Shown: positions 17,697-50,627 of the stretch, piece by piece
Position numbering within the stretch: the first letter of the stretch is position 1
Layout: each line of letters starts with the position of its first letter
Origin: a virus
Taxonomy: Duplodnaviria > Caudoviricetes
Strand: one strand, 5' to 3'
Virus record (IMG/VR): IMGVR_UViG_3300021963_000160
Location: 1-54,899 of that record
Length of the DNA stretch: 54,899 nucleotides
Notes under the pieces: generated by a model
What the model saw: only the letters and a program-made list of their open reading frames with translations
The model's database searches: none
Told to the model about the DNA's origin: nothing
Position numbers and translations under genes: made by a program

Positions 17697-18413
17697 ATGT
17701 CGGAAACTAAATTAAGAGTTGCTATTTGTACTGCCGTATGGAAACGCCCCGAAATATTCGAGATGTTTGCGAAAGGCATACATAATCTTATTAAAAATTG
17801 CCCCGACATCGAGTTTGAAGTTATTGTGGCCGGAAGCGAAGGCCAAAAATCTAAATCTATGGTTCTAAAACACGAATTTTGGTATTTAGAAATTGTTAAT
17901 GACCCATTATCTATAAAAATGAACTCAACCGTAATGTTAGCTAAAACATTAAACGTAGATTATATCCTTGGTGTAGGTTCTGATGATGTAATAACTCCTG
18001 AGTTAATGTATCTTTATAAAGAGTCAATGGAAAATAGGGTTGATTATATCGGTGTGTTAGATTTTTACTTTTACGATACAACAAGTGGCAAATCTTCGTA
18101 TTGGGGTGGGTATCGTGAAGCATACAGGAAGGGTCATACATGTGGCGCAGGTAGACTTATTTCTAAGCGACTTTTAAATTTATGGAACTGGCAACCTTGG
18201 GAAGCTAGGCATAGCAAAATACTTGATACGTCTATCCAAGAGAAACTTAAACATACCCCTCATACGACCAAGGTATTTTCTTTAAAGCAAAATAATGTTT
18301 ATGCCTTAGACATAAAAAGTTCTACCAATATGACACCTTTTGAATTGTGGGATAATACTATCCACATAGATACCGAAATAATTAAAATGAAATTCCCTTA
18401 TATTTTTGAATAA
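17697..18413 (+). CDS. GT-A fold glycosyltransferase
   Basis: N-terminal VAICTAVWKRP strand, GVGSDD (DxD-like), GAGR motif. Confidence 0.7.
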   Translation: MSETKLRVAICTAVWKRPEIFEMFAKGIHNLIKNCPDIEFEVIVAGSEGQKSKSMVLKHEFWYLEIVNDPLSIKMNSTVMLAKTLNVDYILGVGSDDVITPELMYLYKESMENRVDYIGVLDFYFYDTTSGKSSYWGGYREAYRKGHTCGAGRLISKRLLNLWNWQPWEARHSKILDTSIQEKLKHTPHTTKVFSLKQNNVYALDIKSSTNMTPFELWDNTIHIDTEIIKMKFPYIFE

Positions 18414-18990
18414 AATGAAGATAGCCGACCCGAAACAATTTTACGAAAACTACCAAGCCGATAATGTACTTGACAAACTTGATTTTGAATTAGTAGACGT
18501 ATTATTATCTGTTGATCCGACATCTGCCTTTGAATTTGGCTGTGGCTCAGGTAAAAACCTTCAATTATTAAAATCTCACAATATCGATATTGAAACATGT
18601 GGTTTAGACATAAGTATCATTAATGTACTCCAGTCCCATTTAAACGGTGTAGATAGTGTTATTCGCGGAGATGAAAGGCATTTCCCATTACGAAAGTTTG
18701 ATGTTGTTTTTACCTGCTCTGTACTTGACCACATAAAAGACATTAATAATATAATTGGTGCAATGCAAGTAATGGCAAATAAAGCCATAGTTTTAGCCGA
18801 AACAAATTCCTTTAAAAAGAATTTTTACTATAAGCACAATTACACTAAGTACGGGTTTGTAAAGCACGATTTTAAATATGTATCTACTGAAGACGGGGGG
18901 GTATACGAAATTTGGGTATATAAAACTCCTGAATATTTAGAATCACTTGCAGGTGAAACCGATGATTTAACCGATACTTACTCTTGTTAA
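18406..18990 (+). CDS. Class I SAM-dependent methyltransferase
   Basis: FEFGCGSG motif I, GLDIS, FDVVFTCSVLDHI. Confidence 0.85.
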   Translation: MNKMKIADPKQFYENYQADNVLDKLDFELVDVLLSVDPTSAFEFGCGSGKNLQLLKSHNIDIETCGLDISIINVLQSHLNGVDSVIRGDERHFPLRKFDVVFTCSVLDHIKDINNIIGAMQVMANKAIVLAETNSFKKNFYYKHNYTKYGFVKHDFKYVSTEDGGVYEIWVYKTPEYLESLAGETDDLTDTYSC

Positions 18991-18991
18991 T

Positions 18992-20458
18992 ATGTGTGGG
19001 CTTGCAGTAGTATATTATAAAAACAAGACAGGCAACTATCATTTGAATAAAATGCTTGATACCATGTCGCATCGTGGGCACGATTTTCGGACTATTCGTT
19101 ATTACGATAATTGCTCCGTTGGGTATAATAGGCTTGCCATTACCGACAGGGAAAATAACATACACGGATCAGACCACCAATGGAGGATATTTTTAAATGG
19201 CGAAATTTACAATTACAAAGAATTAGGTTTTGAAGGAGTTGAAAATAGTGTTTTAGCGCAAGGACTTGAAAAGTACGGAGTAGATTTCGTAAAACAATTA
19301 AATGGTATGTTTGTTATTGTCGCTATTTCTCCCGAGGACCAAGTTTATGTTTTTAGGGATAGATACGGTATTAAGCCCGCATATTACTATGAAGATAATA
19401 ATATGATAATTGTATCTTCTGAAATCAAACCAATATTACAACATCCGGCATATAAGTTTTCTATTAATGAATCAGCAAAAAAACAGTGGCTTACTTTCAA
19501 TAATGTGTTCACGAACGAAACATTGTTTGATAGAATCTGCAAAATGGATAAAGGTACTATTTGGAATCTAAACACTAATCAAACCACAAAATATTGGGCA
19601 TGGGAGTTTAAGCCTACTCCAATGGATTTTGAGACAGCTAAAAACGAAGTTAAACGACTTGTTATACAGGCTATAAACCGAATGATACCAAAGGAAGTTC
19701 CTTATGCAAGTTGTTTAAGCGGGGGGATAGACAGTAATATTATCGCATCTCAATTACCAAAAGAAATAGAAACTTTTTGCGTTGGGTACATTGGCCCGTT
19801 TATCGAAGATGAAACCGAATTGGCGATGGCATCAGGAAGAAACCCTAATTTAGTTTTACTTTCTTGGATAGAAAACTTTGAAGAAACAATTTACCACTTA
19901 GAAGACCTTAGGGTTGGTGCTTGTTGGAGTAATTATAGATTATTTTCTGATGTTTCATGCCGGCATAAAGTAGTTTTTGATGGCGCAGGTGCAGATGAAT
20001 TATTTGGCGGGTACCCTTGGAGATATTCCGAACCAAATTATTATGATGTTGTAAATCGCACAAAAAACGATTCTGAATTTTGCAAGACACTATTTAACCT
20101 TATATATGGTTACGACACTTTGGAAAATAGGTTTAAATTCGATGCTGAACACTTTTTAGAAGGCGTACTGCTTGTTACCGATAGAATGAGTATGGCGCAT
20201 ACACTTGAAGTAAGGGTTCCTTTCCTTGATAATGACTTGGTAGATTTCTGTTTAACATTACCAAATGAGTTTAAAATAGAGAAACGAATCTTAAAAGCTG
20301 CATTTATTGATGAATTACATCCTGATATATTAATGGGGAAGAAAAAAGGGTTTGGCTCACCCGATTGGTTTCCAGGCGAAGGGAATCAAGCTAATAAATG
20401 GGCAAACGAAGCATATAATCAATGGAAATTAATATTTAATAATTATGGAACTTTATAA
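18992..20458 (+). CDS. asnB: Asparagine synthetase B-family glutamine amidotransferase
   Basis: N-terminal Cys2 (MCGL), HRGHD, NRLAI, NGEIYNY, LSGGIDS, GAGADELFGGY, DRMSMAHTLEVRVPFLD. Confidence 0.9.
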   Translation: MCGLAVVYYKNKTGNYHLNKMLDTMSHRGHDFRTIRYYDNCSVGYNRLAITDRENNIHGSDHQWRIFLNGEIYNYKELGFEGVENSVLAQGLEKYGVDFVKQLNGMFVIVAISPEDQVYVFRDRYGIKPAYYYEDNNMIIVSSEIKPILQHPAYKFSINESAKKQWLTFNNVFTNETLFDRICKMDKGTIWNLNTNQTTKYWAWEFKPTPMDFETAKNEVKRLVIQAINRMIPKEVPYASCLSGGIDSNIIASQLPKEIETFCVGYIGPFIEDETELAMASGRNPNLVLLSWIENFEETIYHLEDLRVGACWSNYRLFSDVSCRHKVVFDGAGADELFGGYPWRYSEPNYYDVVNRTKNDSEFCKTLFNLIYGYDTLENRFKFDAEHFLEGVLLVTDRMSMAHTLEVRVPFLDNDLVDFCLTLPNEFKIEKRILKAAFIDELHPDILMGKKKGFGSPDWFPGEGNQANKWANEAYNQWKLIFNNYGTL

Positions 20459-20981
20459 CTTAGAAGAACACGGATTTATAAATCTAAACGGCAACTGGAT
20501 ACATTCCACTGCTATTATTTATCCTTGCGTAACGCTTGGAAGGAATAATATAATCGGGGCATACTCGGTTATTGGTTCAAATGGAGAAATGCGAAATGTG
20601 AATCCATCTGAATTTAAAGGAGGTGTGGTTATCGGAGATGACAATGTTATTTCGGAGCTTGTAACCATTCAGAGACCGTTTAATGAAGATGAATTTACTT
20701 TAATTGGTAATGGGAATATTATAATGGCGCATAGCCACTTTGGACACAATGTAACATTAGGTAATAACAGCGAAATATGCACAAATGTTGTACTTGGAGG
20801 ATATTCAAATATTGGAGATAATGTTAAAATCAAACTCAGCGCAACCGTTAGAAACCGAATAATAATTGGGAGCAACTCAATAGTTGGGCTAGGAAGTGCT
20901 GTTGTAAAAGATATACCTGGAGGGCAAGTGTGGATGGGGAATCCTGCAAAGTTTTATAAATTAAATAATCCGAACTCCTAA
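20445..20981 (+). CDS. Hexapeptide-repeat (left-handed beta-helix) acyltransferase
   Basis: IHSTAII, IGDDNVI, AHSHFGHN, IGSNSIVGLGSAVVKDIP...GNPAK. Confidence 0.85.
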   Translation: MELYNLEEHGFINLNGNWIHSTAIIYPCVTLGRNNIIGAYSVIGSNGEMRNVNPSEFKGGVVIGDDNVISELVTIQRPFNEDEFTLIGNGNIIMAHSHFGHNVTLGNNSEICTNVVLGGYSNIGDNVKIKLSATVRNRIIIGSNSIVGLGSAVVKDIPGGQVWMGNPAKFYKLNNPNS

Positions 20982-21739
20982 TGAAACTCTGTTTAGCTTA
21001 CACTGTTTTTACCCACGAATTACTTGAACAGTCTATTGCTAATCATATAGACTTAGTGGATGGAATTATTATTTGCTATCAGGAGATTTCAAATAAAGGC
21101 AACAAAACCGCATTTCCGATTGACAAGTTTACTCATGAAAAGATAACTATTGTTAAATACGAACCTAATCTTGCCCTTGGAACCAAATTAAATGAAGTAT
21201 GCAAACATAACCTAATGATTAAAACTGCAAAGAACAAGGGGTTTTCACATATTATTTTATCAGCTTGTGACCATTTTTATGATAAAAATCAGTTTGCGTA
21301 CGTTAAACAGCAAGTAATAGATAAGGATTATGATATTAGTTATACCAAAATGTTCACCTACTATAGAAATCCTATTTATCAAATTACCCCAATAGAAGAT
21401 TATTATATGCCTTTTATTATCAAATTGCATACTAATACTCAGGTAGAAAGTAATGTTAAAACTCCGGTACTTGTAGACCCGTCTGTAAAAGTAAATACTT
21501 GTAAAAATTGGAAACTATTTTCAGAACATGAAATAATGTTACACCATTACTCGATGATACGTTTAGACATAAAGGATAAGTTCAAAAATGCAGCAGCTTC
21601 TATTAGATGGAAACCTGAACAAGTGCAACGATTCATTTCTGAGTATGAAAACTTTTCTATTGAAGATAATAAGCCGATTGAGTACTTCCAAAACCGCAAA
21701 TGTAAAGTTGTCAGAAACTACTTTAATATAGCTAACTAA
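20981..21739 (+). CDS. Putative GT-A-like glycosyltransferase
   Basis: LAYTVF..ELLEQSI...VDGIII, ILSACDHFY (degenerate DxD), LHHYS. Confidence 0.55.
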   Translation: MKLCLAYTVFTHELLEQSIANHIDLVDGIIICYQEISNKGNKTAFPIDKFTHEKITIVKYEPNLALGTKLNEVCKHNLMIKTAKNKGFSHIILSACDHFYDKNQFAYVKQQVIDKDYDISYTKMFTYYRNPIYQITPIEDYYMPFIIKLHTNTQVESNVKTPVLVDPSVKVNTCKNWKLFSEHEIMLHHYSMIRLDIKDKFKNAAASIRWKPEQVQRFISEYENFSIEDNKPIEYFQNRKCKVVRNYFNIAN

Positions 21740-23778: not shown

Positions 23779-25071
23779 ATGAAAAGTAAATTATTTAGAA
23801 TCCAGCTAGAAAGTTATCAATTTTATTATAATGATAATTTATGCGAAGATAGGGACGAATTTAAGGACTTATTAAAAGGCGGATTAATTATTGAAGATTT
23901 AGATTTATGCAAATTAGATTCTGGTATTTTATTTGATAAAAATACTTGCGGTTATAATAAATTCGATAAAATATATTGGCTAGATTCTGAAGATATGCCC
24001 GAAAATATTGGTTATAACGATAAGGACGAATGTTATGACTATATAGAGAATTTAATTTATGGCTACTACTATAGAAATAACGAGGGATATTTTAGTTCAG
24101 ACGATAATTATCTTATCTATAGGGACGAATACTACCATGAAGATTCATTTGACTATCATAATTTAACCGACATTAGCGGAAATTTATATTCTACAGATGA
24201 CGTTTGTTATTGCGAAGATTCAGGAGATTATGAACTACAGGACAATTGTTATTATTCAGATATTGACAATTGCTATTATTCGGATTCGGATAATATGCCC
24301 GAAAATAAAAAAGGATTAAAAAACTACCATGATTCAAATATTGATTTTAAGAACGAAAATAGTAAATATAGAATAGGATTCGAGATTGAAAAAGAAGATT
24401 CAAATTTTACTAATTTTGACAAATTACGCGAAATTGGTTGGGACGCGGAGCGGGACGGCAGTTTGGATAGTCAAACGGGGTTTGAGATGGTTAGTGCAGT
24501 ATATGACTTGATGGATTTAAAAACTTTTAAAGAAGATACCAGCGAAATTAAGGACTTTATAAACGCGGATTATTCGCGTTCATGTGGCGGCCATATTAAT
24601 ATAAGTATTCAGGACTTAACAAATATTGAAGTATTCGAACTAATCAAAGGTTATGCCCCCTTAATATTTGCAATGTATTATGGACGTATTGAAAATACAT
24701 ACTGCAAAGCTAAAAAAGTAGAATTAAACGACATGGAACGATACAGCGCGTTTAATTTCACCAAAAGGAACGGTATATTAGAAATTCGTATATTTTCGGC
24801 CGTCCCTAATTTAGATACGTTAATTTTTAGGACTGAATTATTACAATTTATGTTTAAAAATAGTCGTAAGGGCAGCGCCTCCGTTATTGGTATGTTATTG
24901 AATGAAGATAGTAAATTAACAAAATTATTGAAAATTGTATATTCGGACGAAAAGTATAAAAAATTAGTAGACAGGACTATAAATTATACGGACGTTTACT
25001 CTACATTAAAAGACATTAAACAAACTGAAAACAAATTAAACAAGTTAAACAAATCAAAATTATGTGCATAG
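23779..25071 (+). CDS. Amidoligase (COOH-NH2 ligase fold) with Tyr/Asp/Cys-rich N-terminal region
   Basis: IGFEIEKE, ERDGSL..GFEMVS, SCGGHINIS, RYSAFN, LEIRIF motifs; start moved to ATG 23779. Confidence 0.8.
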   Translation: MKSKLFRIQLESYQFYYNDNLCEDRDEFKDLLKGGLIIEDLDLCKLDSGILFDKNTCGYNKFDKIYWLDSEDMPENIGYNDKDECYDYIENLIYGYYYRNNEGYFSSDDNYLIYRDEYYHEDSFDYHNLTDISGNLYSTDDVCYCEDSGDYELQDNCYYSDIDNCYYSDSDNMPENKKGLKNYHDSNIDFKNENSKYRIGFEIEKEDSNFTNFDKLREIGWDAERDGSLDSQTGFEMVSAVYDLMDLKTFKEDTSEIKDFINADYSRSCGGHINISIQDLTNIEVFELIKGYAPLIFAMYYGRIENTYCKAKKVELNDMERYSAFNFTKRNGILEIRIFSAVPNLDTLIFRTELLQFMFKNSRKGSASVIGMLLNEDSKLTKLLKIVYSDEKYKKLVDRTINYTDVYSTLKDIKQTENKLNKLNKSKLCA

Positions 25072-25811
25072 CAATATTAAATTTAAAAGGAACATTAAGT
25101 AAGGAAACTCTACAGACTTGTTGGAACTCAAATCCTCACGGAGCTGGATTAATCTATAATGACTCGAACGGGCTACAAATTTTTAAAGAACTCAAGTCTT
25201 TTCGGGTATTCTATAATGAATATATAAAGCAAAGGAAATTAAACAAAGATTCGAAATTTGCTATTCATTTCAGAATTTCAACGAGCGGCAAAATAGATTT
25301 AACAAATTGCCACCCGTTTAAAATTAATAAAGATACGGCCTTTATTCATAACGGTATGATTGACATTAAACCACTAAATAAAAAAGTAAGTGACACGTTT
25401 ACGTTTAACGAACTAATTTTTAAGAAATTAGGCAAAGATTGGCAAAGTAATAAGGCTATGATTGAACTATTAGAAAACTATATTTATGGCAGTAAAATAG
25501 TAGTTTTAAATTCAGATAACAGCCATGTAATTTTAAATGAAGATAGCGGACATTGGGACGGTGATAATTGGTATTCAAATAATAGCTATAAACCAGCGAA
25601 AATTAGTAATTTTAAAAATTATGATAGCTACAAAGATTTTTATTATTCAGATATGGACGACATTAAACAAACTTTTACGGACTTTTGCGAGTCATGTTTA
25701 GAAGAGTCCGACACCATATATCTTCGTGACTATAATATGAATTGTTGTAGCAAATGTGCGGAATTGTGGCAGCCGTCAAAAATATCTAAATATCTTCACC
25801 ATGCTATATAG
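25062..25811 (+). CDS. Class II (Ntn) glutamine amidotransferase
   Basis: MCIAI (Cys2), NPHGAG, HFRISTSG, NCHPF, HNGMI, SDT. Confidence 0.9.
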   Translation: MCIAILNLKGTLSKETLQTCWNSNPHGAGLIYNDSNGLQIFKELKSFRVFYNEYIKQRKLNKDSKFAIHFRISTSGKIDLTNCHPFKINKDTAFIHNGMIDIKPLNKKVSDTFTFNELIFKKLGKDWQSNKAMIELLENYIYGSKIVVLNSDNSHVILNEDSGHWDGDNWYSNNSYKPAKISNFKNYDSYKDFYYSDMDDIKQTFTDFCESCLEESDTIYLRDYNMNCCSKCAELWQPSKISKYLHHAI

Positions 25812-28598: not shown

Positions 28599-29036
28599 AT
28601 GACAGACGCAGAAAAATTACAACTCGAAGAAGATAGAACGACTTTTGAATTAAAATGCCTCCTAGATATTAAAGATTTTAAAATATTTCAAGACGAAGCA
28701 GAAAAAATATGGATTTTAGACAAGTTAAAACAAAATAATTTTAACGTCAGTAAAACTGCTATTGAAATTCGCATCCAGCGGAGTCATCTTTACAATAAAA
28801 TCATTAAATACAAAATTCCAATAAACAGAAAACTAAAACACAGTTATTTAAACGGGAGACACATGGTAATTTTCAATCCTAATGGGGATAGGTTTAATTT
28901 TATTATCAAAAATGAGCCAGAACTAACGGAAACTATAAAAAGTGGCTTACAATTCGTTTATATACGAAAATCAAATTTAGCTTACATGGCCAAAAAAATA
29001 TTCACCCGGATAGAAAATTTAACAAACGTCAATTAA
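28599..29036 (+). CDS. Fis-type (HTH_8) DNA-binding protein
   Basis: EAEKIWILDKLKQNNFNVSKTAIEIRIQRSHLYNKIIKYKI resembles the C-terminal HTH of NtrC-family sigma54 activators; no AAA+ domain. Confidence 0.75.
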   Translation: MTDAEKLQLEEDRTTFELKCLLDIKDFKIFQDEAEKIWILDKLKQNNFNVSKTAIEIRIQRSHLYNKIIKYKIPINRKLKHSYLNGRHMVIFNPNGDRFNFIIKNEPELTETIKSGLQFVYIRKSNLAYMAKKIFTRIENLTNVN

Positions 29037-29045
29037 TAAATGCAC

Positions 29046-29107
29046 CAATTTAGAAACATTCTAAATTGTAAAAAGCGTTAAACGTATTATTTGAAATATT
29101 ACTTTTG
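29046..29107 (+). promoter_or_regulatory. Palindromic operator plus -7 promoter box
   Basis: CAATTTAGAA-ACA-TTCTAAATTG (29046-29068) and TACTTTTG (29100-29107). Confidence 0.6.
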
Positions 29108-29132
29108 CCTAAACAATTAAAGAAAAATAAAA

Positions 29133-29360
29133 ATGAAAAAACTAATTAGCTTAATGTTACTCTTAACCTTGCTTAGCTGCGAAAAAGAGAAAGTAGAATG
29201 TAATTGTGGTTTAGTCCTTAGCGACAACGTAAGTGATTATTCAGTTGTAATCCGTAACGATTGCAGCAAGAAAGAAAAGAGATTTTATTTGCAGCCTGGT
29301 GATTGGATCAATGCCCATGTAGGAAGTAACTATTGTATTACAAACGTAAGCAGTTGGTAG
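29133..29360 (+). CDS. Small lipoprotein
   Basis: MKKLISLMLLLTLLS-C signal peptide/lipobox, further Cys residues. Confidence 0.7.
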   Translation: MKKLISLMLLLTLLSCEKEKVECNCGLVLSDNVSDYSVVIRNDCSKKEKRFYLQPGDWINAHVGSNYCITNVSSW

Positions 29361-29481
29361 TATGATACAGATAGCAGTAGTAGTAATTATTATAGTTTTA
29401 TTAGTAAAAATAAAACGTAATACGGAAAAGTAAGTAAACTTGACTTTTAGCAAGAATTTTAAACTCGCAATTAAACAAAAC

Positions 29482-29745
29482 ATGAAAAAGACATTAGAAC
29501 TAACATTATCCGAAAGTGAAGGTGTAAAGATAGAAGTATCCTGCGAGGTGCTACGAATTGAAACTGACAATCCTGCGATACATCCAGATGACCCGAATCA
29601 ATCCACGATAACAGAGTATTGGTGCAAGACAATTAATAAATTAAAGATAAACGGTTTTGAACTTGGAATTTATAACCATAAGACTTTGAAAGAAATCGAA
29701 AGATTAGTGGAAGAACAACTTGAAGAAAATCCTGAATTATTTTAA
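29482..29745 (+). CDS. Hypothetical protein
   Basis: Start moved to ATG 29482; ends 6 nt before the repeat array. Confidence 0.55.
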   Translation: MKKTLELTLSESEGVKIEVSCEVLRIETDNPAIHPDDPNQSTITEYWCKTINKLKINGFELGIYNHKTLKEIERLVEEQLEENPELF

Positions 29746-29751
29746 GAGAAA

Positions 29752-29878
29752 TAACGGTACTTGGCTTAGCGAAGAAGTGGAAAAGCAAGCCTAATCTTTC
29801 GGTTTAGAAACCAAAATAACAAACACAAAACCAACATTGAATTAAGCCTAAAACCGCTTTTTTGCTAAACCAATGTTA
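29752..29878. repeat. Unit A1 (attC-like hairpin, no ORF)
   Basis: TAAC-GGTAC-TTGGCTTAGCGAAGAAGTGG ... CCGCTTTTTTGCTAAACCAA-T-GTTA. Confidence 0.8.
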
Positions 29879-29892
29879 TAACTCGTTTTTTT

Positions 29893-30078
29893 ATGAAAAA
29901 ATATTTATTGCAATTAATAGAAGTAGAAATAGAAAACACAATGAAAAAGTTAATTCATTGGAACAAAATGGAAGATAGGTTTAAATCAGACCCTTATCAT
30001 ATACGTTGCAAATTAGCAATGGAACGTAAATTGGAAAAAATTAGTCGTTATAAAACTCGGGTGCAAAATGAGTTATAA
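29893..30078 (+). CDS. Cargo of unit B1 (29875-30079): hypothetical helical protein
   Basis: 61 aa; stop TAA lies within the terminal TAAC; unit ends GTTATAACTCGTTTT / AAAATGAGTTATAAC. Confidence 0.65.
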   Translation: MKKYLLQLIEVEIENTMKKLIHWNKMEDRFKSDPYHIRCKLAMERKLEKISRYKTRVQNEL

Positions 30079-30162
30079 CGGTATCGGGCTTGGCGAAGGT
30101 GGGCTTGTAGGATGCTCAATTTTAGCAGGATGTGTATGCCCACTTTTGCCAAACCCGTGTTA
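30076..30162. repeat. Unit A2 (attC-like hairpin, no ORF)
   Basis: TAAC-GGTAT-CGGGCTTGGCGAAGGTGGGC ... GCCCACTTTTGCCAAACCCG-T-GTTA. Confidence 0.85.
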
Positions 30163-30234
30163 TATGAAGTGCCGACTTATTTACGATAAAGCCCAATTGG
30201 AACACTAAACAGAAAAACAAAAAGAAAAAAAGCG

Positions 30235-30924
30235 ATGGCAATAAAAGATAAATATAATGTAAAAAGTGTATCAACCGACCAATGCAAAGAATGGCTGTTG
30301 AAGAAACACTACTTACATAGAATGACATCATTTACTTACTCATTTGGATTGTATGAAAATAATTTATTAGTTGGCGTTATTACTTTTGGAAATGCAGTTC
30401 CTTTGACAATGAAAAAATCATTATTTGGAGAAAAGTATATGGATTTGGTTTACGAATTAAATAGACTATGTACGAATGATGATTTAGATAAAAACGCAAC
30501 ATCTTTTTTTGTGGCTGAATCTTTTAAACTACTTCCAAAGCCATTGATAATTGTAAGCTATGCAGATAAATCAGTTGGACATAATGGGTATATTTACCAA
30601 GCAACTAATTTCATATTTACTGGAGAAAGCCATACTCAATTGGATTGGAAATTGAAAGGCAAAGAACATATACATAGCAGAACTTTAATGGATGAATTTG
30701 CATTTACAGAAGATAGAATTGAAAAGTTGAAAGAAAAGTATGGAGACCAATTATATCAAGTTAGGAGAGAACCAAAATACAGGTATGTTTATGTATTGGC
30801 TAATAAAAAACAAAAAAAAGAGATAATGAACAGCAAATTATTTAAATCAAAACCATACCCAAAAGGAGAAAACACAAGATATGATGCAAGTTATAAACCA
30901 AGTATTCAAACAGAATTATTTTAA
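30235..30924 (+). CDS. Mom-family (GNAT-fold) DNA adenine modification protein; cargo of unit B2 (30159-31003)
   Basis: KKHYLHR, FGLY..LVGVITFG, YELNRL, IVSYADKSVGHNGYIYQATNFIFTG, K.RY; unit ends GTTATATGAAGTGCC / GGCATTTCATATAAC. Confidence 0.75.
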   Translation: MAIKDKYNVKSVSTDQCKEWLLKKHYLHRMTSFTYSFGLYENNLLVGVITFGNAVPLTMKKSLFGEKYMDLVYELNRLCTNDDLDKNATSFFVAESFKLLPKPLIIVSYADKSVGHNGYIYQATNFIFTGESHTQLDWKLKGKEHIHSRTLMDEFAFTEDRIEKLKEKYGDQLYQVRREPKYRYVYVLANKKQKKEIMNSKLFKSKPYPKGENTRYDASYKPSIQTELF

Positions 30925-31085
30925 AAGTGCGATGGCTTTTTTCTTTTTGTTTTTCCTTCACGGAACTTCAATTGGAACACGTCAGCAAGGCATTTCATAT
31001 AACGGTATCGGGCTATATGCAGTGCGAAATAACACACAAAAGATGATACGAAGCACAACAGTAATAATTTTAAAATATTTTTAGC

Positions 31086-31748
31086 GTGGAAATTAAAAAA
31101 ATAAATCCAGTTGATTGTAAGGAATGGCTTTTGACCAAACACTATGCAAAAAGAATGACTCCAATAAATAAGGCGTTTGGATTAGTTATAAATAATTCTA
31201 TTGTAGGTGTTTGTACTTTTGCCATACCAGCATCAAGGTTTGAATTTTCATTACAGCCATACGAATTAAATAGGTTAGTGGTTAATGAAAATTTGGGCAA
31301 AAACATACTTTCTCAATTTGTAGGAATGTGTTTAAGAGAATTTGGAGAATCTGCAATAATTGTTTCGTATGCAGATGAAAATTATGGACACCACGGATAT
31401 ATTTATCAGGCTACAAATTGGATTTACACTGGTCGTTCATCTGCTGAAAAAAGAATGTTTGTTAATGGACAAGAATTGCACAGGAGAACACTATACGACA
31501 AATACGGAACATCATCAATACCAGAATTAGAGAAACTTGGATTAAATATTACTTACAATAAACAGCTTGGTAAGCATAGATATTTCCAATTTACTGGCAC
31601 AAAAAAAGATAGCAAGATACTGAAAGAAGAAGTAATATTAAAATACGGCACACAACCATATCCAAAAGGAAACAATACAAGATATGATTCTGGTAATGAT
31701 ATTAAGATAAATATAAAACCAAAAGCAGTACAAACATCACTATTCTAA
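31086..31748 (+). CDS. Second Mom-family protein; cargo of unit A3 (31000-31859)
   Basis: TKHYAKR, IVGVCTF, YELNRL, IVSYADENYGHHGYIYQATNWIYTG, KHRY; GTG start; unit arms CGGGCTATATGCAGTGC / GCATTGCATATAGCCCG. Confidence 0.75.
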   Translation: MEIKKINPVDCKEWLLTKHYAKRMTPINKAFGLVINNSIVGVCTFAIPASRFEFSLQPYELNRLVVNENLGKNILSQFVGMCLREFGESAIIVSYADENYGHHGYIYQATNWIYTGRSSAEKRMFVNGQELHRRTLYDKYGTSSIPELEKLGLNITYNKQLGKHRYFQFTGTKKDSKILKEEVILKYGTQPYPKGNNTRYDSGNDIKINIKPKAVQTSLF

Positions 31749-31855
31749 TGGCTTTGAAAAAGCCAAAGTGCGGTGGGAAAAATATTTTAAAATTATGGTC
31801 AAATTAGAACAAAACTCGATACGAAGCACGGAACTAAGCATTGCATATAGCCCGT

Positions 31856-31884
31856 GTTATAGCATCGTTTTAATGTGCTATAAC
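31856..31884. repeat. Unit B3: minimal 29-nt empty unit
   Basis: GTTATAGCA-TCGTTTTAATG-TGCTATAAC. Confidence 0.8.
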
Positions 31885-32006
31885 GTTTTGCAGCTAACCG
31901 AAGGCAGGGAATTTAACCACAAAACAACAATGGAAACACGAAACTTGAACACACCACAAAACTATCTTAGGAGCAGTAAAACCCTGCTTTTGGTTAGGTG
32001 CTGTTA
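31881..32006. repeat. Unit A4 (attC-like hairpin, no ORF)
   Basis: TAAC-GTTTT-GCAGCTAACCGAAGGCAGGG ... CCCTGCTTTTGGTTAGGTGC-T-GTTA. Confidence 0.8.
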
Positions 32007-32044
32007 TAAGAAGTAGCGAATTATTAACGATAAATTTAATTAAA

Positions 32045-32215
32045 ATGAATATAACATTAGCAAAAGTAAAAAGAACACTCGAAAAAGATTATGGGTGGAG
32101 TAATATGAATATTGAAAGTCAAAAATTTTTAATTGACGAATTGATAAAAGATACACTCAAAATTATAGATAATGAATTGCGAACTCACAAAGGGATTTCC
32201 ATTAAGAAACGCTAA
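32045..32215 (+). CDS. Cargo of unit B4 (32003-32234): 56-aa hypothetical protein
   Basis: Manual translation MNITLAKVKRTLEKDYGWSNMNIESQKFLIDELIKDTLKIIDNELRTHKGISIKKR*; unit ends GTTATAAGAAGTAGC / GCTATTTCTTATAAC. Confidence 0.6.
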   Translation: MNITLAKVKRTLEKDYGWSNMNIESQKFLIDELIKDTLKIIDNELRTHKGISIKKR

Positions 32216-32278
32216 TGTAGCTATTTCTTATAACTAATCGGTAAGTATTATAAAACTAAATATTAAACTATTAAAAAT

Positions 32279-32500
32279 ATGCAAATAACAGTTAATTACG
32301 ATTTAAAATGGCAGCTAAAAACAGCCCCGAATTATCAATTTACAGACGATGGAATATGTATTAATACATTAAGAGGTAAGATAGTAAGAAAAGTAGTTGT
32401 AAGCAGCACTAAAGGCTATTGTATAAACGGTAAATTTAGAAGTGTATTGCAACTGCGAAAAGAATTAATTAAGATTGAAAAAATAATTTGTCCATTTTAG
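32279..32500 (+). CDS. Hypothetical protein (NUMOD/HNH-associated-like fragment possible)
   Basis: 73 aa; YQFTDDGICINTLRGKIVRKVV...GYCING. Confidence 0.55.
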   Translation: MQITVNYDLKWQLKTAPNYQFTDDGICINTLRGKIVRKVVVSSTKGYCINGKFRSVLQLRKELIKIEKIICPF

Positions 32501-32512
32501 AACGTTTCTAAA
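32496..32512. promoter_or_regulatory. Palindromic operator copy
   Basis: TTTAGAA-CGT-TTCTAAA with TTTG ending 43 nt downstream. Confidence 0.5.
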
Positions 32513-32880
32513 TTACTTAAACCAACAAATAATTAAAACAATATCTCTTAATTTGAATAATGAAATTTAAAGCACTTAGGAAGTTTAGCAAGCAAGAGGT
32601 TGTGGGATACCTGAGTAAAGTTGGTAAAGTAAGAATTTATACGATTGAGGGGGTTGATTATACAATAACTGAATTTAAAAAACATTTTAATAATTTTGAA
32701 TTATGACAAAGAAAGGAAGATATTTTTTTAGAGACATACCGTCAATTACATGCAATAAACACGAAGTTATTCGAGCTACCAGAGTTTGTACTTGTTGCGG
32801 TAAATATGTGGACCCATTCAATATATTGTGCGATCCTTGTTATGCAAAGAAATAACCAACCAAGAAATAATAATTAAAAT

Positions 32881-35956: not shown

Positions 35957-36571
35957 ATGAAGCCTAAATCTTGCCGACAATGTAAAACTAAATTCATTCC
36001 GGATAGACCTTTGCAAATGGTTTGTTCTTTTATGTGTAGTGTTGAATATACCAAAGCTAATCAGGCGAAAAAAGCTAAAAAGGATTGGGTTAAAGAAAAG
36101 GCAGAACGAAAGGAAAAGATAACCACGTTAAGCGAATGGAAAGGACTATTACAGGAAGTAATTAATGGAATAGTACGATTGATTGACAAAGACATGGGAT
36201 GTATTGCCACAGGAACTAAAACAGGCAAGATGAATGCAGGGCATTATATAAGTCGTGGCAGTAACGATACAATACGTTTTAATCTTCATAATATTCATCT
36301 CCAGTCAGAGCATTCAAATTCCTTTAATTCAGGCGATACAATACGTTATCAGGATGGAGTAGTAAGAATGTATGGCAAAGATTATTTAGAGTTATTAAAT
36401 AGCCTTAAATCAACTAAACCAATAAACTTAACTATTGAAACCATAAAGGATAAAATAATTATTGCAAAATTAATCAGAAAGGAATTAATAGAATTAGGGA
36501 ATAGATACACATCAGCCGAAAGAATCCAGTTAAGACACGATTTGAACAATAGAATAGGAATATATATATGA
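35957..36571 (+). CDS. ninG: NinG/Rap-family recombination endonuclease
   Basis: CxxC...CS..C N-terminus, VRLID, NAGHYISRG...RFNLHNIHLQ...N. Confidence 0.85.
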   Translation: MKPKSCRQCKTKFIPDRPLQMVCSFMCSVEYTKANQAKKAKKDWVKEKAERKEKITTLSEWKGLLQEVINGIVRLIDKDMGCIATGTKTGKMNAGHYISRGSNDTIRFNLHNIHLQSEHSNSFNSGDTIRYQDGVVRMYGKDYLELLNSLKSTKPINLTIETIKDKIIIAKLIRKELIELGNRYTSAERIQLRHDLNNRIGIYI

Positions 36572-37341
36572 AGAAATACATATCATTTAGTGGTGGAGTT
36601 GAAAGTTCAACAATGGCAATTCTTTATGGCAAAGGTGCTAAATTAATATGGGTAGATACTGGTGCAGAACACAAAGAACTTTATGACAGATTAGATATGT
36701 TTGAAAAATACATATTAGAACTACATAAAGGAGATTGTGAACTAATACGATTAAAAGGCTCTTATTCTACCAAAGGTGTAAAAGTAGATAGTTTGATTGA
36801 TGCAATAAGAATAGGACAATTTATGCCATCAGGGCAAAAAAGATTTTGCACATCAGCATTCAAAATCAAACCTATTGATAATTATTTAAAGTCACTTGGC
36901 GAAGTAGAACTTATGATAGGTTTTAATTTGGATGAAGAAGGTAGGACAGGAAATTTAGAAAAAATATCAAGTATTAATTACACATATCCTTTAATTAATG
37001 ACGGCTACACAAGAAAAGACTGTGAAGCTATTTTAGAATTTCACGGAATGCATCCATCCTTCCCTGTTTATATGAATAGAGGTGGGTGTAAGATGTGTTT
37101 TTATAAGTCACAAAAAGAATACAAAGCAATGTATTATTTAGATAGGGATACTTTTAACGAGATTAAAGAATTAGAAAATGATATTCAAGATAAAAGGGTT
37201 AAGCATTTTTCAATAATGGAATCAGGCAAATCAATGAATCAACTTGAGCAAGAATGCAAGGAAGAAATACCATTTGATTTTACAGAAATTTATAAAGACA
37301 GAGAAAGTAATCGTTCTTGTGGAGCATTTTGTAGAAGATAA
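36568..37341 (+). CDS. PAPS-reductase-like adenine nucleotide alpha-hydrolase
   Basis: ISFSGGVESS PP-loop, DTGAEH, RFCT..FKIKP, GCKMCF, C-terminal SCGAFC. Confidence 0.8.
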   Translation: MKKYISFSGGVESSTMAILYGKGAKLIWVDTGAEHKELYDRLDMFEKYILELHKGDCELIRLKGSYSTKGVKVDSLIDAIRIGQFMPSGQKRFCTSAFKIKPIDNYLKSLGEVELMIGFNLDEEGRTGNLEKISSINYTYPLINDGYTRKDCEAILEFHGMHPSFPVYMNRGGCKMCFYKSQKEYKAMYYLDRDTFNEIKELENDIQDKRVKHFSIMESGKSMNQLEQECKEEIPFDFTEIYKDRESNRSCGAFCRR

Positions 37342-37342
37342 G

Positions 37343-37498
37343 ATGACATACAAGGGATTTAAAATAGAACTAAACGAGTATTACAACTGGAGATACCCTA
37401 ACACTAAATATCTATATTTTAGTATTTCCGATTGTGATAGTCTTGTATTATGGGCTGCAACAATAGATGAATGTAAATTACAAATAGACACGATTTAA
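37343..37498 (+). CDS. Hypothetical protein
   Basis: Start moved to ATG 37343 (MTYKGFKIE...). Confidence 0.5.
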   Translation: MTYKGFKIELNEYYNWRYPNTKYLYFSISDCDSLVLWAATIDECKLQIDTI

Positions 37499-37517
37499 AC
37501 ATTAGGTTAGGTATCTA

Positions 37518-37577
37518 TTTAGATTAATTCTAAATTAGAAAACCCGATAAATATATGAAATAAATGAACGTATTTTG
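37518..37577 (+). promoter_or_regulatory. Palindromic operator plus promoter copy
   Basis: TTTAGAT-TAA-TTCTAAA; TATTTTG ends 43 nt later; leader TTTTGCCCTACAATTAAA resembles the one at 29103. Confidence 0.55.
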
Positions 37578-37600
37578 CCCTACAATTAAACGATAAAAAA

Positions 37601-37945
37601 ATGAAAATAACAGTAACAGACACAATCAAAAGGGAAATTGAAATAACGTTTCCATGTTTTTACAAGGTTGCCGAAACTTATTCAAAGCCAAGCTATTATG
37701 CTTTTTTTAATGAAAGGTTAGGTTTATTCCTTAGTGATGGATTTACATATCAAGCAACTCCTTCATCCTGCGATTTTAAAAAGGTTATTCCATGCGAAAA
37801 ATCAGAGGTTGCAGAAGTGTTTATTGCAAACCAAAGACTGTTTAATAATACGTTTAATCAGGTTACTATTGACCTTAATAGTAACACACCCACCGAAGAA
37901 CTTGAAAACCTAAACACTATTTTATTTGGACACGATGAAGGCTAA
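37601..37945 (+). CDS. Hypothetical protein
   Basis: 114 aa downstream of the promoter. Confidence 0.6.
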   Translation: MKITVTDTIKREIEITFPCFYKVAETYSKPSYYAFFNERLGLFLSDGFTYQATPSSCDFKKVIPCEKSEVAEVFIANQRLFNNTFNQVTIDLNSNTPTEELENLNTILFGHDEG

Positions 37946-38141
37946 AATAATAGATTACATTTTTAAATACTTCATAAAATGGAACGGGTAATTAACAACT
38001 GGATTAAATCAATCCAACGCAAACGAGCCCGGGAAAGACAGAACAATTTTTTTAGAGAAATAGTAAAACCAATAAAACTTTGAAACAATCAACATCAATA
38101 ATAATCTTATTTTTAATAGTAACAATTTTAATAATAATATA

Positions 38142-38933
38142 ATGGCAAGAACAAATCCAAATCAATCAGAGCTTCCAAAAAATCCTGCAACAATGTTTGC
38201 ACAATGGAAAGACCCAGGACTATTCCTTTATTGGGATAAAGAACAAGAAAAGAACATTGAGTTACCATCTAACTTTACGTTTATTGTATTAGATGAACTT
38301 TCAACTATCAAAGGTTGGAATGACCCAACAAGTTCAGGTATCTACGCTAATGAAATCAGAAACATTAAATCTGAAACATTAACGGTTAAATCATTTAAAG
38401 GTGGTTTGATAGCAGAAGGCACCTATGGTAACATTCACGATACTATTGTAGCGTCAGGAGGTAAATATTGTGCTTCTGTTTACATTGCCTACAAAGATTC
38501 AGAAGGCTTCAAAATAGGTAACATTCAATTTACAGGTTCATCTTTAGGCGGGTGGTTTGAGTTTCGTAAAGAAAGCAAAAACGATCTATATTCAAAAGCA
38601 GTACAGTTAACCGGTAAAACTGAAGCTAAAAAAGGGGCAACAAAATATTATGTTCCAGTCTTTAAGTTGATTGATGTAAGTCAAGAAACGGATGATATTG
38701 CAGGCAAATTACAAGAGGAATTAAAGGCCTACCACAAGGAGTATTTCAGCAAAACAATTCCCGTTGAATTAGAAAAAGAATTAGATAATGCTAAGTCAGA
38801 AGTAGAACAACAAAAGGAAATAATGGACAAGCACTTTACGCAGCATATTCCTGACGATGGCTATGTAACTAAAAAAGATGATGGACATTTAGTAAGTGCA
38901 ACAACTCCCGAAAACGATAACGTTCCTTTTTAA
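38142..38933 (+). CDS. Putative ssDNA-binding protein
   Basis: 263 aa, beta-rich core, acidic tail ending ENDNVPF. Confidence 0.55.
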   Translation: MARTNPNQSELPKNPATMFAQWKDPGLFLYWDKEQEKNIELPSNFTFIVLDELSTIKGWNDPTSSGIYANEIRNIKSETLTVKSFKGGLIAEGTYGNIHDTIVASGGKYCASVYIAYKDSEGFKIGNIQFTGSSLGGWFEFRKESKNDLYSKAVQLTGKTEAKKGATKYYVPVFKLIDVSQETDDIAGKLQEELKAYHKEYFSKTIPVELEKELDNAKSEVEQQKEIMDKHFTQHIPDDGYVTKKDDGHLVSATTPENDNVPF

Positions 38934-39017
38934 TTATGAGCCTAACAAAAGAATTTTATTTTAATCAAATTAACCAATTAGAAGAATTGGAATTACCAAT
39001 TGAATATTTAAACAATT

Positions 39018-48009: not shown

Positions 48010-48263
48010 AACACTCCAACCACTTCGCGCAATTGTATTATAGTAACGCTTAGTTTATTTATTGTCATTGTAAAACTATTTGTTCTGTCATACAAAATAA
48101 CATCACCTGACTTTACAGTTTCAACCTCATCACCAACTGCGATAACCTTCCCTTTGTAGTATCTAGATTTAGTTGAGTCATCCGCCGATAAAAGCATACC
48201 TGATGACGTTTCTTCGTTTTCAATAATGGTTTCTAGTGTTATGTACTTAGCTATTGGTTTCAT
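48006..48263 (-). CDS. groES: Co-chaperonin GroES
   Basis: MKPIAKYI...TSSGMLL...KGKVIAVG..V..VKSGDVILY. Confidence 0.9.
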   Translation of the reverse strand: MKPIAKYITLETIIENEETSSGMLLSADDSTKSRYYKGKVIAVGDEVETVKSGDVILYDRTNSFTMTINKLSVTIIQLREVVGVF

Positions 48264-49834
48264 GCTCTTTGAATGTTTATAGATGCGTTTGTACTTAAGA
48301 TTGTAATTGCTACCGATATGGCGTTCTGTAATGCTACTCTTGTTACTTTAAATGGGTCTATCACGCCCATGTCCATTAGATTACCGTATTTACCAGTTTT
48401 AAGATTATACCCTTCGCCTTTAGACATAGAACTACCGTATATAGATACAGCATCAAGGTCGGCATTTTTTAGTATTTGCATTAAAGGAACTTTAATAGCA
48501 TTCATAATAATATCGTGGGCACAAATATATTCAGATGTACCGTTTAAATCCACAGGGACAGAAACTTCCCATAACGCCTTCCCTGCTCCGCTTATAATAC
48601 CTTCTTCTATTGCAGACTTAACGGCCAATACCGCATCTTCAACCCGGTCAAATAATTCTTTCTGCTCCATGTCGGTATTCCCTCCAACGTAGATTATCCC
48701 AATACCACCTATCAATGAGGCTATTCTTTCGTTTATGAAGTCTTTTTTGTGTTTCTTATCTGCAAGGTCATAAGCAGTTCTTAATTGCGATACTCTTGCG
48801 TCAAGCAGCTCTTTGTCTCCGCCGCCTTCAAGTATTACGGTTTTGTTAGCACCTACAATAACCTTTTTTGCGTATCCTAAACTCTCAAAAGTAACTACAC
48901 TTAGATTGTCTCCTGTTTGTTCAGAGAAATATGTAGCACCTACCGAAAGGGCTATATCTTGCATAAGGTCATTCTGCTTAACCCCAAAATTAGGAGGCTG
49001 TATTACACACGCATTAATTCTCCCTGTTTTCACATTTGCCGCAAACGTATTTATGACGTTAGTGGTACAAGGGGATATTACTAAAAATCTCCTGCCTGCA
49101 TCTATCACCTCGCCTATGACTTTGTTTAATTGCTGAAAGTTGGCTATCTCTGTATCGCAAACTAAGATTGATACATTTTCCATTATGCACTCTTCCTTGC
49201 CCCAATCATTTATAAATGATGGCGAACTGTAACCTCGCGCCACCATCAATCCATTAATTATATCAGAACGGGTTTCACTGTCGTATCCTTTCTCGATTGT
49301 GATAATACCATCGTTTCCTACACTCTTATAGGCATCGGCAATTATCTTGCCTATTTCGGGGTCATTATTGGCTGAAATAGTAGCTACATCTAAAATGATT
49401 TTATCAGTACACTGAATGGCATCTTGTTTTAAGGTATTGATAACTTCCTCGGAAATATCAGACATGAATTTTAAAACATTTGTCCTATTTAATTCGGGAG
49501 TTATTTTATCAATAGCTTCCAATATCAACGCTTCGGAAAGTACAATAGCGGTACTTGTTCCATCGCCGGCTAATGATGCGGTTTTTTCTGCTGCTTCTTT
49601 TACAATACGAACCGCCATGTTTTCAACAGGATTAGGCAACTCTATTGAGCGTGCTACTGTTACACCGTCCTTTGTTACAGTTAGGCCGTGTGTTTGATGT
49701 ACTGTTTCAATAAGTACAGTTCTACCGTATGGACCTAATGTACTTTTTACTGCTGAACTTAATTTTTTAATTCCTTCAACCAAGGAATCACGGCAATCGT
49801 CACCGAATAGCAAATCTTTTGTTAGAACTTCCAT
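48260..49834 (-). CDS. groEL: Chaperonin GroEL
   Basis: VKSTLGPYGRTV, VTKDGVTVA, AGDGTSTA, VATISANND, RVEDAVLAVKSAIEEGI, GVIDPFKVTRVALQNA; lacks the GGM tail. Confidence 0.95.
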   Translation of the reverse strand: MEVLTKDLLFGDDCRDSLVEGIKKLSSAVKSTLGPYGRTVLIETVHQTHGLTVTKDGVTVARSIELPNPVENMAVRIVKEAAEKTASLAGDGTSTAIVLSEALILEAIDKITPELNRTNVLKFMSDISEEVINTLKQDAIQCTDKIILDVATISANNDPEIGKIIADAYKSVGNDGIITIEKGYDSETRSDIINGLMVARGYSSPSFINDWGKEECIMENVSILVCDTEIANFQQLNKVIGEVIDAGRRFLVISPCTTNVINTFAANVKTGRINACVIQPPNFGVKQNDLMQDIALSVGATYFSEQTGDNLSVVTFESLGYAKKVIVGANKTVILEGGGDKELLDARVSQLRTAYDLADKKHKKDFINERIASLIGGIGIIYVGGNTDMEQKELFDRVEDAVLAVKSAIEEGIISGAGKALWEVSVPVDLNGTSEYICAHDIIMNAIKVPLMQILKNADLDAVSIYGSSMSKGEGYNLKTGKYGNLMDMGVIDPFKVTRVALQNAISVAITILSTNASINIQRA

Positions 49835-49859
49835 TAAATTTAATTTTATTGAATTTTGA

Positions 49860-50627
49860 TTATGCAAAAATACCCAAAAGATTTAATATTTCTTCTGGTG
49901 TATATTTTATTTCAGGCTTACCATAATGGTTAATTTCTTTTATTTCTCCCGATTTTAGTTTTTCTATTATTTCCAGCATGTCCATTTTTAATTTTACATC
50001 TCGGTTTATATGCGTAGATAAGAATTTTTTACCCCTATATAAAGTAGGAGGTCCCCATTTATTATCAAAATCATTTTTTAAGTGAATAACAAAGTATTGG
50101 TATTCATTCACAGAAAAACGTGTAAGCATCATAGGTGTATCCAAATCAGAATTGGAAGCATCTATTACTTCTATTGGTTCTGATGTGTAGTAGCGCTCTT
50201 TAAATCGTTCGTGGATTTTATCGTTTACGCCAAGTATTTTCTCTTCTCCAGTTATCCCGTGTTTATCTACCAGAATCTTGTTTCCTATATTAAAACTTCG
50301 GCAAAGCCCATTGACGGTTGTATGTTTAGATATGTAATGAAATGTATTTACGGTGCGTATTATTTTTTCTCCATCAAATTCATATCTTTCTTCGGGTTCT
50401 CTATACCAATAATTGATATCATACCAACTTACATCAACATATCTTTTTAATCCTGCGCTTCTAAGACATTGGCTAAAAGCATATACTTTAGCTCCAGCTA
50501 CAATTACTTTAGGTTTTTTGGGGCCTATTGCCTTGCCTCTACCAAATTCCTTAGTTTTGCTGAAGCGTTTTTTTGACCGCCATACTTTTTTGCCTTTAAA
50601 ATTAAGTTCACCCCTTACTCTTGGCAT
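49860..50627 (-). CDS. Hypothetical protein with basic N-terminus
   Basis: 255 aa ORF in operon orientation. Confidence 0.6.
   Translation of the reverse strand: MPRVRGELNFKGKKVWRSKKRFSKTKEFGRGKAIGPKKPKVIVAGAKVYAFSQCLRSAGLKRYVDVSWYDINYWYREPEERYEFDGEKIIRTVNTFHYISKHTTVNGLCRSFNIGNKILVDKHGITGEEKILGVNDKIHERFKERYYTSEPIEVIDASNSDLDTPMMLTRFSVNEYQYFVIHLKNDFDNKWGPPTLYRGKKFLSTHINRDVKLKMDMLEIIEKLKSGEIKEINHYGKPEIKYTPEEILNLLGIFA

Follow-up and report, generated by a model that had tools for sequence, protein, structure and literature searches.

Nested repeats around two Mom-family genes are the fixed parts of a reusable hairpin slot in an uncultured phage

An uncultured phage recorded in IMG/VR as IMGVR_UViG_3300021963_000160 (the whole 54,899-nt record, hereafter the window, with a completeness estimated at 90%) carries, between positions 29750 and 32234, a row of palindromes in which neighbours meet at shared 6-nt cores. 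Two hairpins of this row, designated B2 (30159-31003) and A3 (30998-31861), each hold a gene of the Mom family, surrounded by a second layer of repeats nested inside the hairpin arms. The nested repeats make up the constant part of a reusable hairpin slot, which is composed of outer arms, a middle repeat and inner arms. The strong evidence for the repeat layer is its near letter-for-letter conservation around other genes in 44 other contigs, and this layer is a conserved frame, neither a product of chance nor the footprint of a transposon. As for its function, an account that combines stems bracketing the cistron in the mRNA with portable homology for cargo exchange is given an even chance of being correct.

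The A-type hairpins of the row run from TATAAC to GTTATA and the B-type hairpins from GTTATA to TATAAC; the parts of B2 and A3 are given here on the plus strand. B2 begins with the GTTATA core of its outer left arm (30159-30173; 15 nt, 93% complementary), which was kept in 18 of 18 complete units, and its outer right arm (30989-31003) ends in a TATAAC core that is also the first core of A3. Inside these arms stand the two copies of a 12-nt repeat, CAATTGGAACAC, at 30194-30205 and 30969-30980; the palindrome CAATTG within this repeat lets both copies pair with each other as well, forming a third stem. The inner left arm (30212-30233) is an A-rich leader ending 1 nt before the start codon of the first cargo gene (30235-30924; 229 aa; PF25680, E 5.8e-42), and the stop codon is immediately followed by the right box AAGTGCGATGGC (30925-30936) and by the T-rich inner right arm (30935-30955). 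The inner inverted repeat formed by these arms is perfect over 19 nt and extends to 22 nt with one A bulge.

The A3 unit is 864 nt long with its gene in the loop, the other A hairpins of the row (A1, A2 and A4) being of 91-131 nt. Its outer left arm (30998-31025), made of a core, a 5-nt bulge and a stem, is the same arm that occurs in contigs L035-L040, and its outer right arm (31838-31861) ends in the GTTATA core. The 12-nt repeat GATACGAAGCAC stands at 31045-31056 and 31818-31829, and the perfect 19-nt inner left arm (31064-31082), ending 3 nt before a GTG start, pairs with the inner right arm at 31778-31796. The second cargo gene (31086-31748; 663 nt, 220 aa; PF25680, E 2e-27) has this GTG within AGCGTGG and is followed by a small hairpin with a GAAA loop just past the stop codon (31750-31764) and by the right box AAAGTGCGGTGGG (31765-31777). 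All the repeats listed in an earlier note on this DNA were found where it had placed them, and its description of A3 as an A-type site with a 663-bp gene in the loop was confirmed by the position of this ORF between the A3 arms. Across the units, the inner bracket encloses one cistron, opening 1-3 nt ahead of the start codon and closing 0-32 nt past the stop codon.

The same note had described B2 and A3 as built from unrelated sequences, a view which did not survive alignment, as outer arms, trailers and right boxes of the two units align with each other. The common outer arm reads TATATG-M-AGTGC with GCATT-K-CATATA, and the two units also agree in the right box, in where the inner arms lie, and in the second repeat copy together with the letters after it. 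B2 corresponds to the inner portion of an A3-type hairpin, one stem letter creating its GTTATA core, and the two units are homologous versions of one interrupted hairpin.

The right frame of B2 was found in the window and in 38 other contigs (7 from IMG/VR and 31 from metagenomes); a 15-mer scan for the B2 right end gave 75 matches, 8 of them genuine by context. Clustering at 80% identity placed the 37 loci whose cargo end spanned 40 nt or more into 23 groups, and 18 complete B2 units (14 distinct) retained the left frame too, around cargo of 0.3-1.3 kb with one to three ORFs. The A3 arms occurred in six other contigs (L035-L040), and a gene lies in the loop in 7/7 loci including the window, which makes the gene inside an attC-like loop a recurrent arrangement. 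In L037-L040 the 12-nt repeats and inner arms are as in the window and the cargo is different: an N6_N4 methylase in L039, TAGT glycosyltransferases in L038 and L040, and a protein without known family in L037. L035 and L036 share the A3 outer arms only, with another inner inverted repeat around an MT-A70 methylase. The earlier note had suggested a search for the same outer arms with alternative cargo; such alleles were found, and their direct repeats and inner arms were identical as well.

The frames were nearly unchanged between freshwater and marine Flavobacteriia-type phages, with differing genes inside. The cargo families comprised Mom, N6_N4_Mtase, Dam, MT-A70, EcoRI_methylase-like, TAGT, DUF4417 with ADP-ribosyltransferase, GNAT, SpoU and proteins without assignment, and are mostly nucleic-acid modifiers. 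A B2-type slot in contig L172 (1120-2354) contained two ORFs, for a DUF4417 protein and a protein with an ADP-ribosyltransferase domain. Contig L317 was 90-95% identical to the window on both sides, yet had a different unit array between those flanks. In contigs and assembly graphs of four public runs, the graphs broke at frame edges with a frame depth about 10-fold above that of the cargo, and one contig swapped the cargo of A3 (31100 to 31753).

Both large ORFs are full-length members of the Pfam Mom family PF25680, scoring 144.1 and 96.6 bits against a curated cut-off of 27.1, and the two proteins share 42% mutual identity. Most of the 31 relatives of the first cargo gene found in IMG/VR were without the frame, and among those with readable flanks a similar frame was present only in L004, whose Mom protein is 98% identical to that of the first cargo, which indicates that the frame is not part of the Mom gene.

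Direct repeats of at least 12 nt appeared in 220 of 500 dinucleotide shuffles of 30159-31859, so that the direct repeats alone are not significant; perfect inverted repeats of at least 19 nt appeared in 3 of the 500. The whole units also folded better than shuffled sequences (z of -4.9 in B2 and -5.6 in A3; none of 20 shuffles matched either unit), and both outer and inner arms pair in these predicted folds. The order of direct repeat, inverted repeat, gene, inverted repeat and direct repeat, with a spacing of 775 and 773 nt, is the one that a transposon-like insertion would leave, with the Mom genes as passengers between terminal inverted repeats and the 12-nt repeats as target-site duplications. 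Such an insertion is extremely improbable and close to refuted: beyond the frequency of 12-nt repeats in the shuffles, the direct repeats do not abut the inverted repeats, being 6-7 nt away on the left and 13-21 nt on the right, the same direct repeats flank four other cargos, and no Y1 transposase (PF01797) was present in the window. Moreover, the left 12-nt copy differs from the right one at 1-4 positions in other B2 alleles, and motifs resembling the two 12-mers are found single or in tandem in the loops of ordinary hairpins (L103 and the second hairpin of L035). These divergent copies and the motifs in ordinary loops mark the direct repeats as a recurrent loop motif, not an insertion footprint.

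Attention had also been drawn to a GCG(n)TGG motif at both inner borders of the cargo, the left copy supplying the start codon, and the copies were found at 30232, 30929, 31084 and 31770, which are four of the 10 plus-strand matches in the window and stand at the four ORF borders. The other 6 plus-strand matches are not at gene starts, by which the motif was ruled out as the general gene-start context of this phage. At the left junction, the frame continues from the A-rich inner arm into ATGG or GTGG, after which come G, then C, A or G, and then A; in about 10 alleles it extends through M-E/G/A-N-L/F at the cargo start. In L039, the fourth codon of the frame coincides with the position of the ATG start in the related methylase of L175, and in L194 the start supplied by the frame is dead and the cargo starts at its own ATG 24 nt downstream. 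The trinucleotide before ATGG is GCG in most alleles and GGG, GGA, GAG or AGG in others, and in L037, L038 and L040 the AGCGTGG of A3 is replaced by a Shine-Dalgarno-like AGGGAGG or AAGGAGG with a spacer and ATG. The left motif is accordingly mainly a start codon in its context, given that GCG is variable and aligned with a Shine-Dalgarno-like box in these three alleles.

At the right junction, the constant part starts at (A)GTGCGGTGG, 0-7 nt past the stop codon, and the right motif is part of a conserved box, with a variable internal spacer (A, G, T, GT or none). The ORF reads through into the inner right arm in L037 and L038, and the QTxLF ending of the Mom proteins recurs in the L078 methylase and the L064 cargo, which places these joins inside the last codons of a former resident. 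The junctions are tightly clustered at the ORF ends, not at a single fixed phosphodiester bond, and those lying within ORFs, with QTxLF ends or M-E/G/A-N-L/F starts, look like illegitimate joins rather than a fixed crossover point. A small ORF starting in the right box was ruled out, its frame being broken by single-T indels in L078, L185 and L191. A related trailer was observed at about 4490-4560 of L121, where a post-stop hairpin with a GCAA loop is followed by two tandem right boxes and a T-run, an arrangement that resembles a terminator. Inner inverted repeats occur without GCGnTGG in two of the other frame types (L035/L036 and L166/L189), the diverged L004 frame retains both boxes, and the cargo of the unrelated L166 frame is also flanked by a short repeat bearing the start codon.

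The earlier note had built on these borders a model in which a GCGnTGG crossover at the inner hairpin tip captures ORFs and leaves one copy on each side, as a step of cassette creation. The position of the four motif copies agrees with it, as do the boxes of L004, the start-codon-bearing repeat of L166 and the observation that, in at least 13 B2-type and 5 A3-type alleles, the stretch of differing cargo runs exactly from the left RTGG to the right GTGCGGTGG. The model nevertheless seems quite unlikely to be right. The variability of the left GCG and of the right-box spacer, and the L035 frame without the motif, speak against it; junctions in the first or last codons of a former ORF misfit a fixed cut site; no enzyme candidate was present; and the searches turned up no unfilled slot, in which one GCGnTGG would stand at the tip. 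A pattern for the tip-only B2 hairpin in IMG/VR gave 50 matches, comprising 49 unrelated terminators or coding sequences and the trailer of L121, with no empty slot; a pattern of B2 arms with a loop of at most 30 nt gave no match; none of the 39 right-frame alleles was empty, the left arm never being closer than 406 nt; and no arm sequence turned up in both an empty and a filled form. A 14-mer of the common hairpin arm had at least 120 chance matches in GC-rich GTDB genomes and none in a hairpin context. Contigs of the four runs contained no deletion joint across either cargo, which says little because contigs drop rare variants. From the proposed capture at the hairpin apex, the swappable cargo in the loop and the joins at RTGG and GTGCGGTGG are supported, while the crossover and the empty sites are not.

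The slot might also be a dedicated device for ORF capture on the folded hairpin, acting through an unrecognized enzyme or through template switching at the stem base, a proposal that is likewise rather improbable. If it were true, any reading frame could be installed from start to stop between RTGG and GTGCGGTGG in an attC-like loop, which would supply a missing step in the making of integron-like cassettes, and the 29-nt hairpins with an ATG in the loop would be the unfilled form. The hairpin B3 of the window (31856-31884, plus strand), with the constant loop TCGTTTTAATG, is possibly an unfilled simple slot.

Returning to the combination of mRNA stems and portable homology, several lines of evidence indicate that pairing is under selection. 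Five unrelated inner-arm sequences (the B2, A3, L035, L166 and L004 types) occupy the equivalent place, and one inner-arm pair shifts from G-C to G-T (L173) and to A-T (L081). The post-stop hairpin is the same in L039 and L040, its stem is replaced in L038 with pairing kept, and it bears a GCAA loop in L121. In addition, the 29-nt B hairpins of the window (B3) and of L036, L039 and L317 have five different, fully compensated stems under a constant 11-nt loop ending in ATG, a loop that also caps some A-type hairpins. With respect to the strand, the gene strand gives the better fold in 48 of 63 distinct A hairpins (Wilcoxon p = 5e-6) and in 7 of the 8 units of the window; for A2, an ordinary attC-like hairpin (TATAAC ... 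GTTATA; 30074-30164, plus strand) before the B2 slot, the values were -40.3 kcal/mol on the sense strand and -33.6 on the other. Tetraloops of the GNRA type include GAAA and GCAA, and the loops observed here match GNRA on the sense strand only. This folding bias implicates the sense strand, whether as RNA or in the form of single-stranded DNA; the stems track start and stop codons and not DNA landmarks, which, together with the GNRA-type loops, favours RNA.

From these sequence features, the stems would be sense-strand structures, most probably of the mRNA, closing the cistron into a loop, and they may occlude the A-rich translation start region, by which the output of a potentially harmful modifying enzyme would be gated or processed. 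At the same time, about 75 nt of left frame and about 85 nt of right frame, present in many co-infecting phages, could serve as portable homology, and general recombination would swap the DNA between frames, by analogy with the PeSL motifs (promoter-terminator stem-loops) of T4-type phages. New cargo would enter by rare illegitimate joins, surviving only with the stems intact; if only stem-preserving joins survive, junctions would be expected within a few codons of start and stop, near ORF-exact and with scars.

The presence of inverted repeats flanking a gene is also the arrangement of invertons and of the G/C segments of phages. The perfect inverted repeats of 19-22 nt could by this comparison be invertase sites that flip the gene on and off. 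Such an invertible segment is hardly credible here, since the cargo was in sense orientation, and never inverted, in 18/18 complete B2 and 7/7 A3 units, the contigs of the four runs contained no strand-changing joint, and neither serine (PF00239) nor tyrosine (PF00589) recombinases were found in the window; PF00589 was also missing from 5 further phage records that carry the slot, 3 of them at least 95% complete.

Several observations weigh against the combined account of mRNA bracketing and homologous exchange. Just one compensatory pair was seen within one frame type, and uncompensated changes occur in L176 and L195. A scan of 29700-32300 gave 10 promoter-like sites against 13.3 expected, with a sigma-70 consensus that may not fit Bacteroidota, and no canonical terminator. 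Selection by itself may not suffice to explain the start-to-stop precision in more than 20 cargos. In the 18 B2 units, the shared frame breaks off abruptly at the 6-nt core on either side, and TATAAC is followed by 15 different 8-nt sequences; this is predicted neither by short-homology or ordinary homologous recombination nor by integron-type exchange at R' only, and a frame ending exactly at the cores hints at a core-specific DNA reaction. Finally, a role at the DNA level is on record for at least the outer hairpins, since Polaribacter phage P12002L has a hairpin of this family that IntI1 recombined (Qi et al. 2023, PMC9892861).

These points lead to an alternative in which the stems are helpers at the DNA level. 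The outer hairpins would be integron-type or core-specific sites that work in folded single-stranded form, a site with a 0.3-1.3 kb loop would be zipped up by the inner arms and the palindromic repeat so that the cores meet, and cargo would move in hairpin-bounded units by means of a host recombinase or another, unrecognized one. Several features favour this alternative, namely the GTTA/TAAC cores, with the cassette start pairing specifically with its own first core, the frame units ending exactly at cores on both sides, the pairing of outer and inner arms in the whole-unit folds, the other unit set of L317 between the same flanks, and a contig of run X4 in which the end of A4 is joined to the start of B2 through 7 shared core letters. 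The architecture of P12002L (NC_028924, L319) is that of the window: in 37200-39000 and 29160-32300 on the minus strand, attC-like hairpins stand on either side of the Mom-like gp53 and of each of the methylases gp54, gp38, gp36 and gp35, and every one of these genes is bracketed by inverted repeats of its own. According to PMC9892861, a hairpin of this phage was recombined with attI1 by IntI1 as single-stranded DNA, the bottom strand performing better than the top.

On the other side, no tyrosine, serine or Y1 recombinase was present in the window, nor a tyrosine recombinase in the 5 other records; NinG/Rap was ruled out as a shared effector, being encoded in the window and in P12002L but in 0/5 of those records. 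The hairpin after the slot is not carried along, unlike the attC of an integron cassette, and the spacers, of 4-6 against 1-3 nt, are unlike the equal ones of attC. The better-folding strand is mostly the top one, whereas it is the bottom strand that integrons use, and the inner arms hug the start and stop codons, which would be unneeded in a purely DNA role. Taken together, DNA-level helper stems are considered unlikely.

Concerning the rest of the row, A1 (29750-29880), B1 (29875-30079), A2, B2, A3, B3, A4 (31879-32008) and B4 (32003-32234) follow one another, and their loops hold every ORF of the row. About 70 nt of the A1 loop (29780-29850) are 76-84% identical to unannotated intergenic hairpin loops in the Flavobacterium psychrophilum phages FPSV-F7, FPSV-D35 and 23T; in a BLAST of the region against a phage collection, the A1 loop was the sole match, in 4 F. 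psychrophilum phage records, and Rfam gave no match in 28800-32600 at E up to 1. Plus-strand genes fill about 23-40 kb of the window, including those of a DnaB helicase and of the NinG/Rap endonuclease. Genes for SAM methyltransferase, asparagine-synthase-like amidotransferase, hexapeptide acyltransferase, GATase-like and PAPS-reductase-like proteins were seen at 18406-21739, 25062-25811 and 36568-37341, a gene block that may constitute a nucleotide or DNA hypermodification pathway. A Cpn60/GroEL-type chaperonin is encoded at 48260-49867 on the minus strand (PF00118, E 3e-52).

With mostly nucleic-acid modifiers as cargo, the slot looks like a plug-in site for anti-restriction genes. If this reading is true, it would be a standard socket, identical across many unrelated phage backbones, for the gene that beats the restriction of the current host, and a compact mechanism of rapid counter-defence turnover. 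The slot is also a natural case of gene replacement that is nearly exact to the ORF. How integron cassettes arise is a long-standing question, for which a gene in a loop with separable frame and cargo offers a concrete test object, and the existence of a cultured phage of the same architecture, P12002L, makes experiments possible.

Among known systems, the attC site of integrons is an imperfect palindrome with the inverse cores R'' (RYYYAAC) and R' (GTTRRRY). The core 7-mers of the hairpins described here always present AAC ... GTT and fit these consensus sequences in part (ATATAAC/GTTATAG in A3, GTTAGGG in relatives and GTTAGGC in P12002L). In attC, the unpaired central spacers are of equal length, and extrahelical bases stand between the R and L boxes; here, counting with 0-6 nt allowed on each side, the spacers were of 4-6 nt (mostly 5) after TAAC and of 1-3 nt before GTTA. 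The attC length of about 55-140 nt is exceeded by A3, the units of the window end at both cores, unlike attC cassettes, and the R'-to-R' rule of integron cassettes does not apply, as the hairpin that follows the B2 slot is not carried along with it. Clusters of attC sites lacking integrases (CALINs) were described in virulent phages, including P12002L, with methylase cassettes whose sites lie 'in divergent directions' (PMC9892861). The phage CALINs share with the window the row of imperfect palindromes with GTT/AAC cores, the small genes between them, the lack of an integrase and the DNA methyltransferase cargo. Genes in the loop, inner inverted repeats, a shared frame and cargo swapping are absent from the main text of that paper, in which the word 'loop' occurs 0 times. 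Literature searches for genes inside attC loops or for this frame found no description.

Another comparison is offered by phage Mu com-mom, in which the mom start is held in a local RNA hairpin opened by the zinc-finger protein Com. Both cases involve a Mom-family or DNA-modifying gene with its start region in an RNA structure (predicted here) and a harmful enzyme under tight gating, but the pairing partner lies here past the stop codon. No Com-like family turned up; a 50-aa Cys-rich, zinc-ribbon-like ORF just downstream of the row (32703-32855), a possible candidate for such a factor, had no Pfam match. In a similar way, 16S and 23S rRNA are bracketed by long-range processing stems that are sites of RNase III. 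As in these stems, the flanks of an RNA of about 1 kb would pair here in a helix of about 20 bp or more and loop the RNA; the rRNA stems concern a non-coding RNA with a known nuclease, whereas here a protein-coding cistron is enclosed and the bracketing is predicted.

The PeSLs of T4-type phages are, according to Arbiol et al. 2010 (PMC2839356) and Comeau et al. 2014 (PMC4122927), promoter-terminator stem-loop cassettes that flank variable non-essential ORFs in hyperplastic regions and act as exchange points between unrelated genes in close relatives. A PeSL joins an early promoter to a terminator stem-loop, as a local stem-loop with a sigma-70 promoter on each side of an ORF, whereas here the two sides of the ORF pair in nested layers, attC-like cores are present, and neither promoters above chance nor terminators were found in the scan with a sigma-70 consensus, which may not fit the host. 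Like the PeSLs, the slots mark break points of gene replacement between close relatives, as seen in L317 and in the differing cargo of identical frames. The PeSL motifs are the nearest functional analogue for motif-mediated gene shuffling, and the slot combines two known kinds, cassettes of the phage CALIN type and PeSL-like shuffling.

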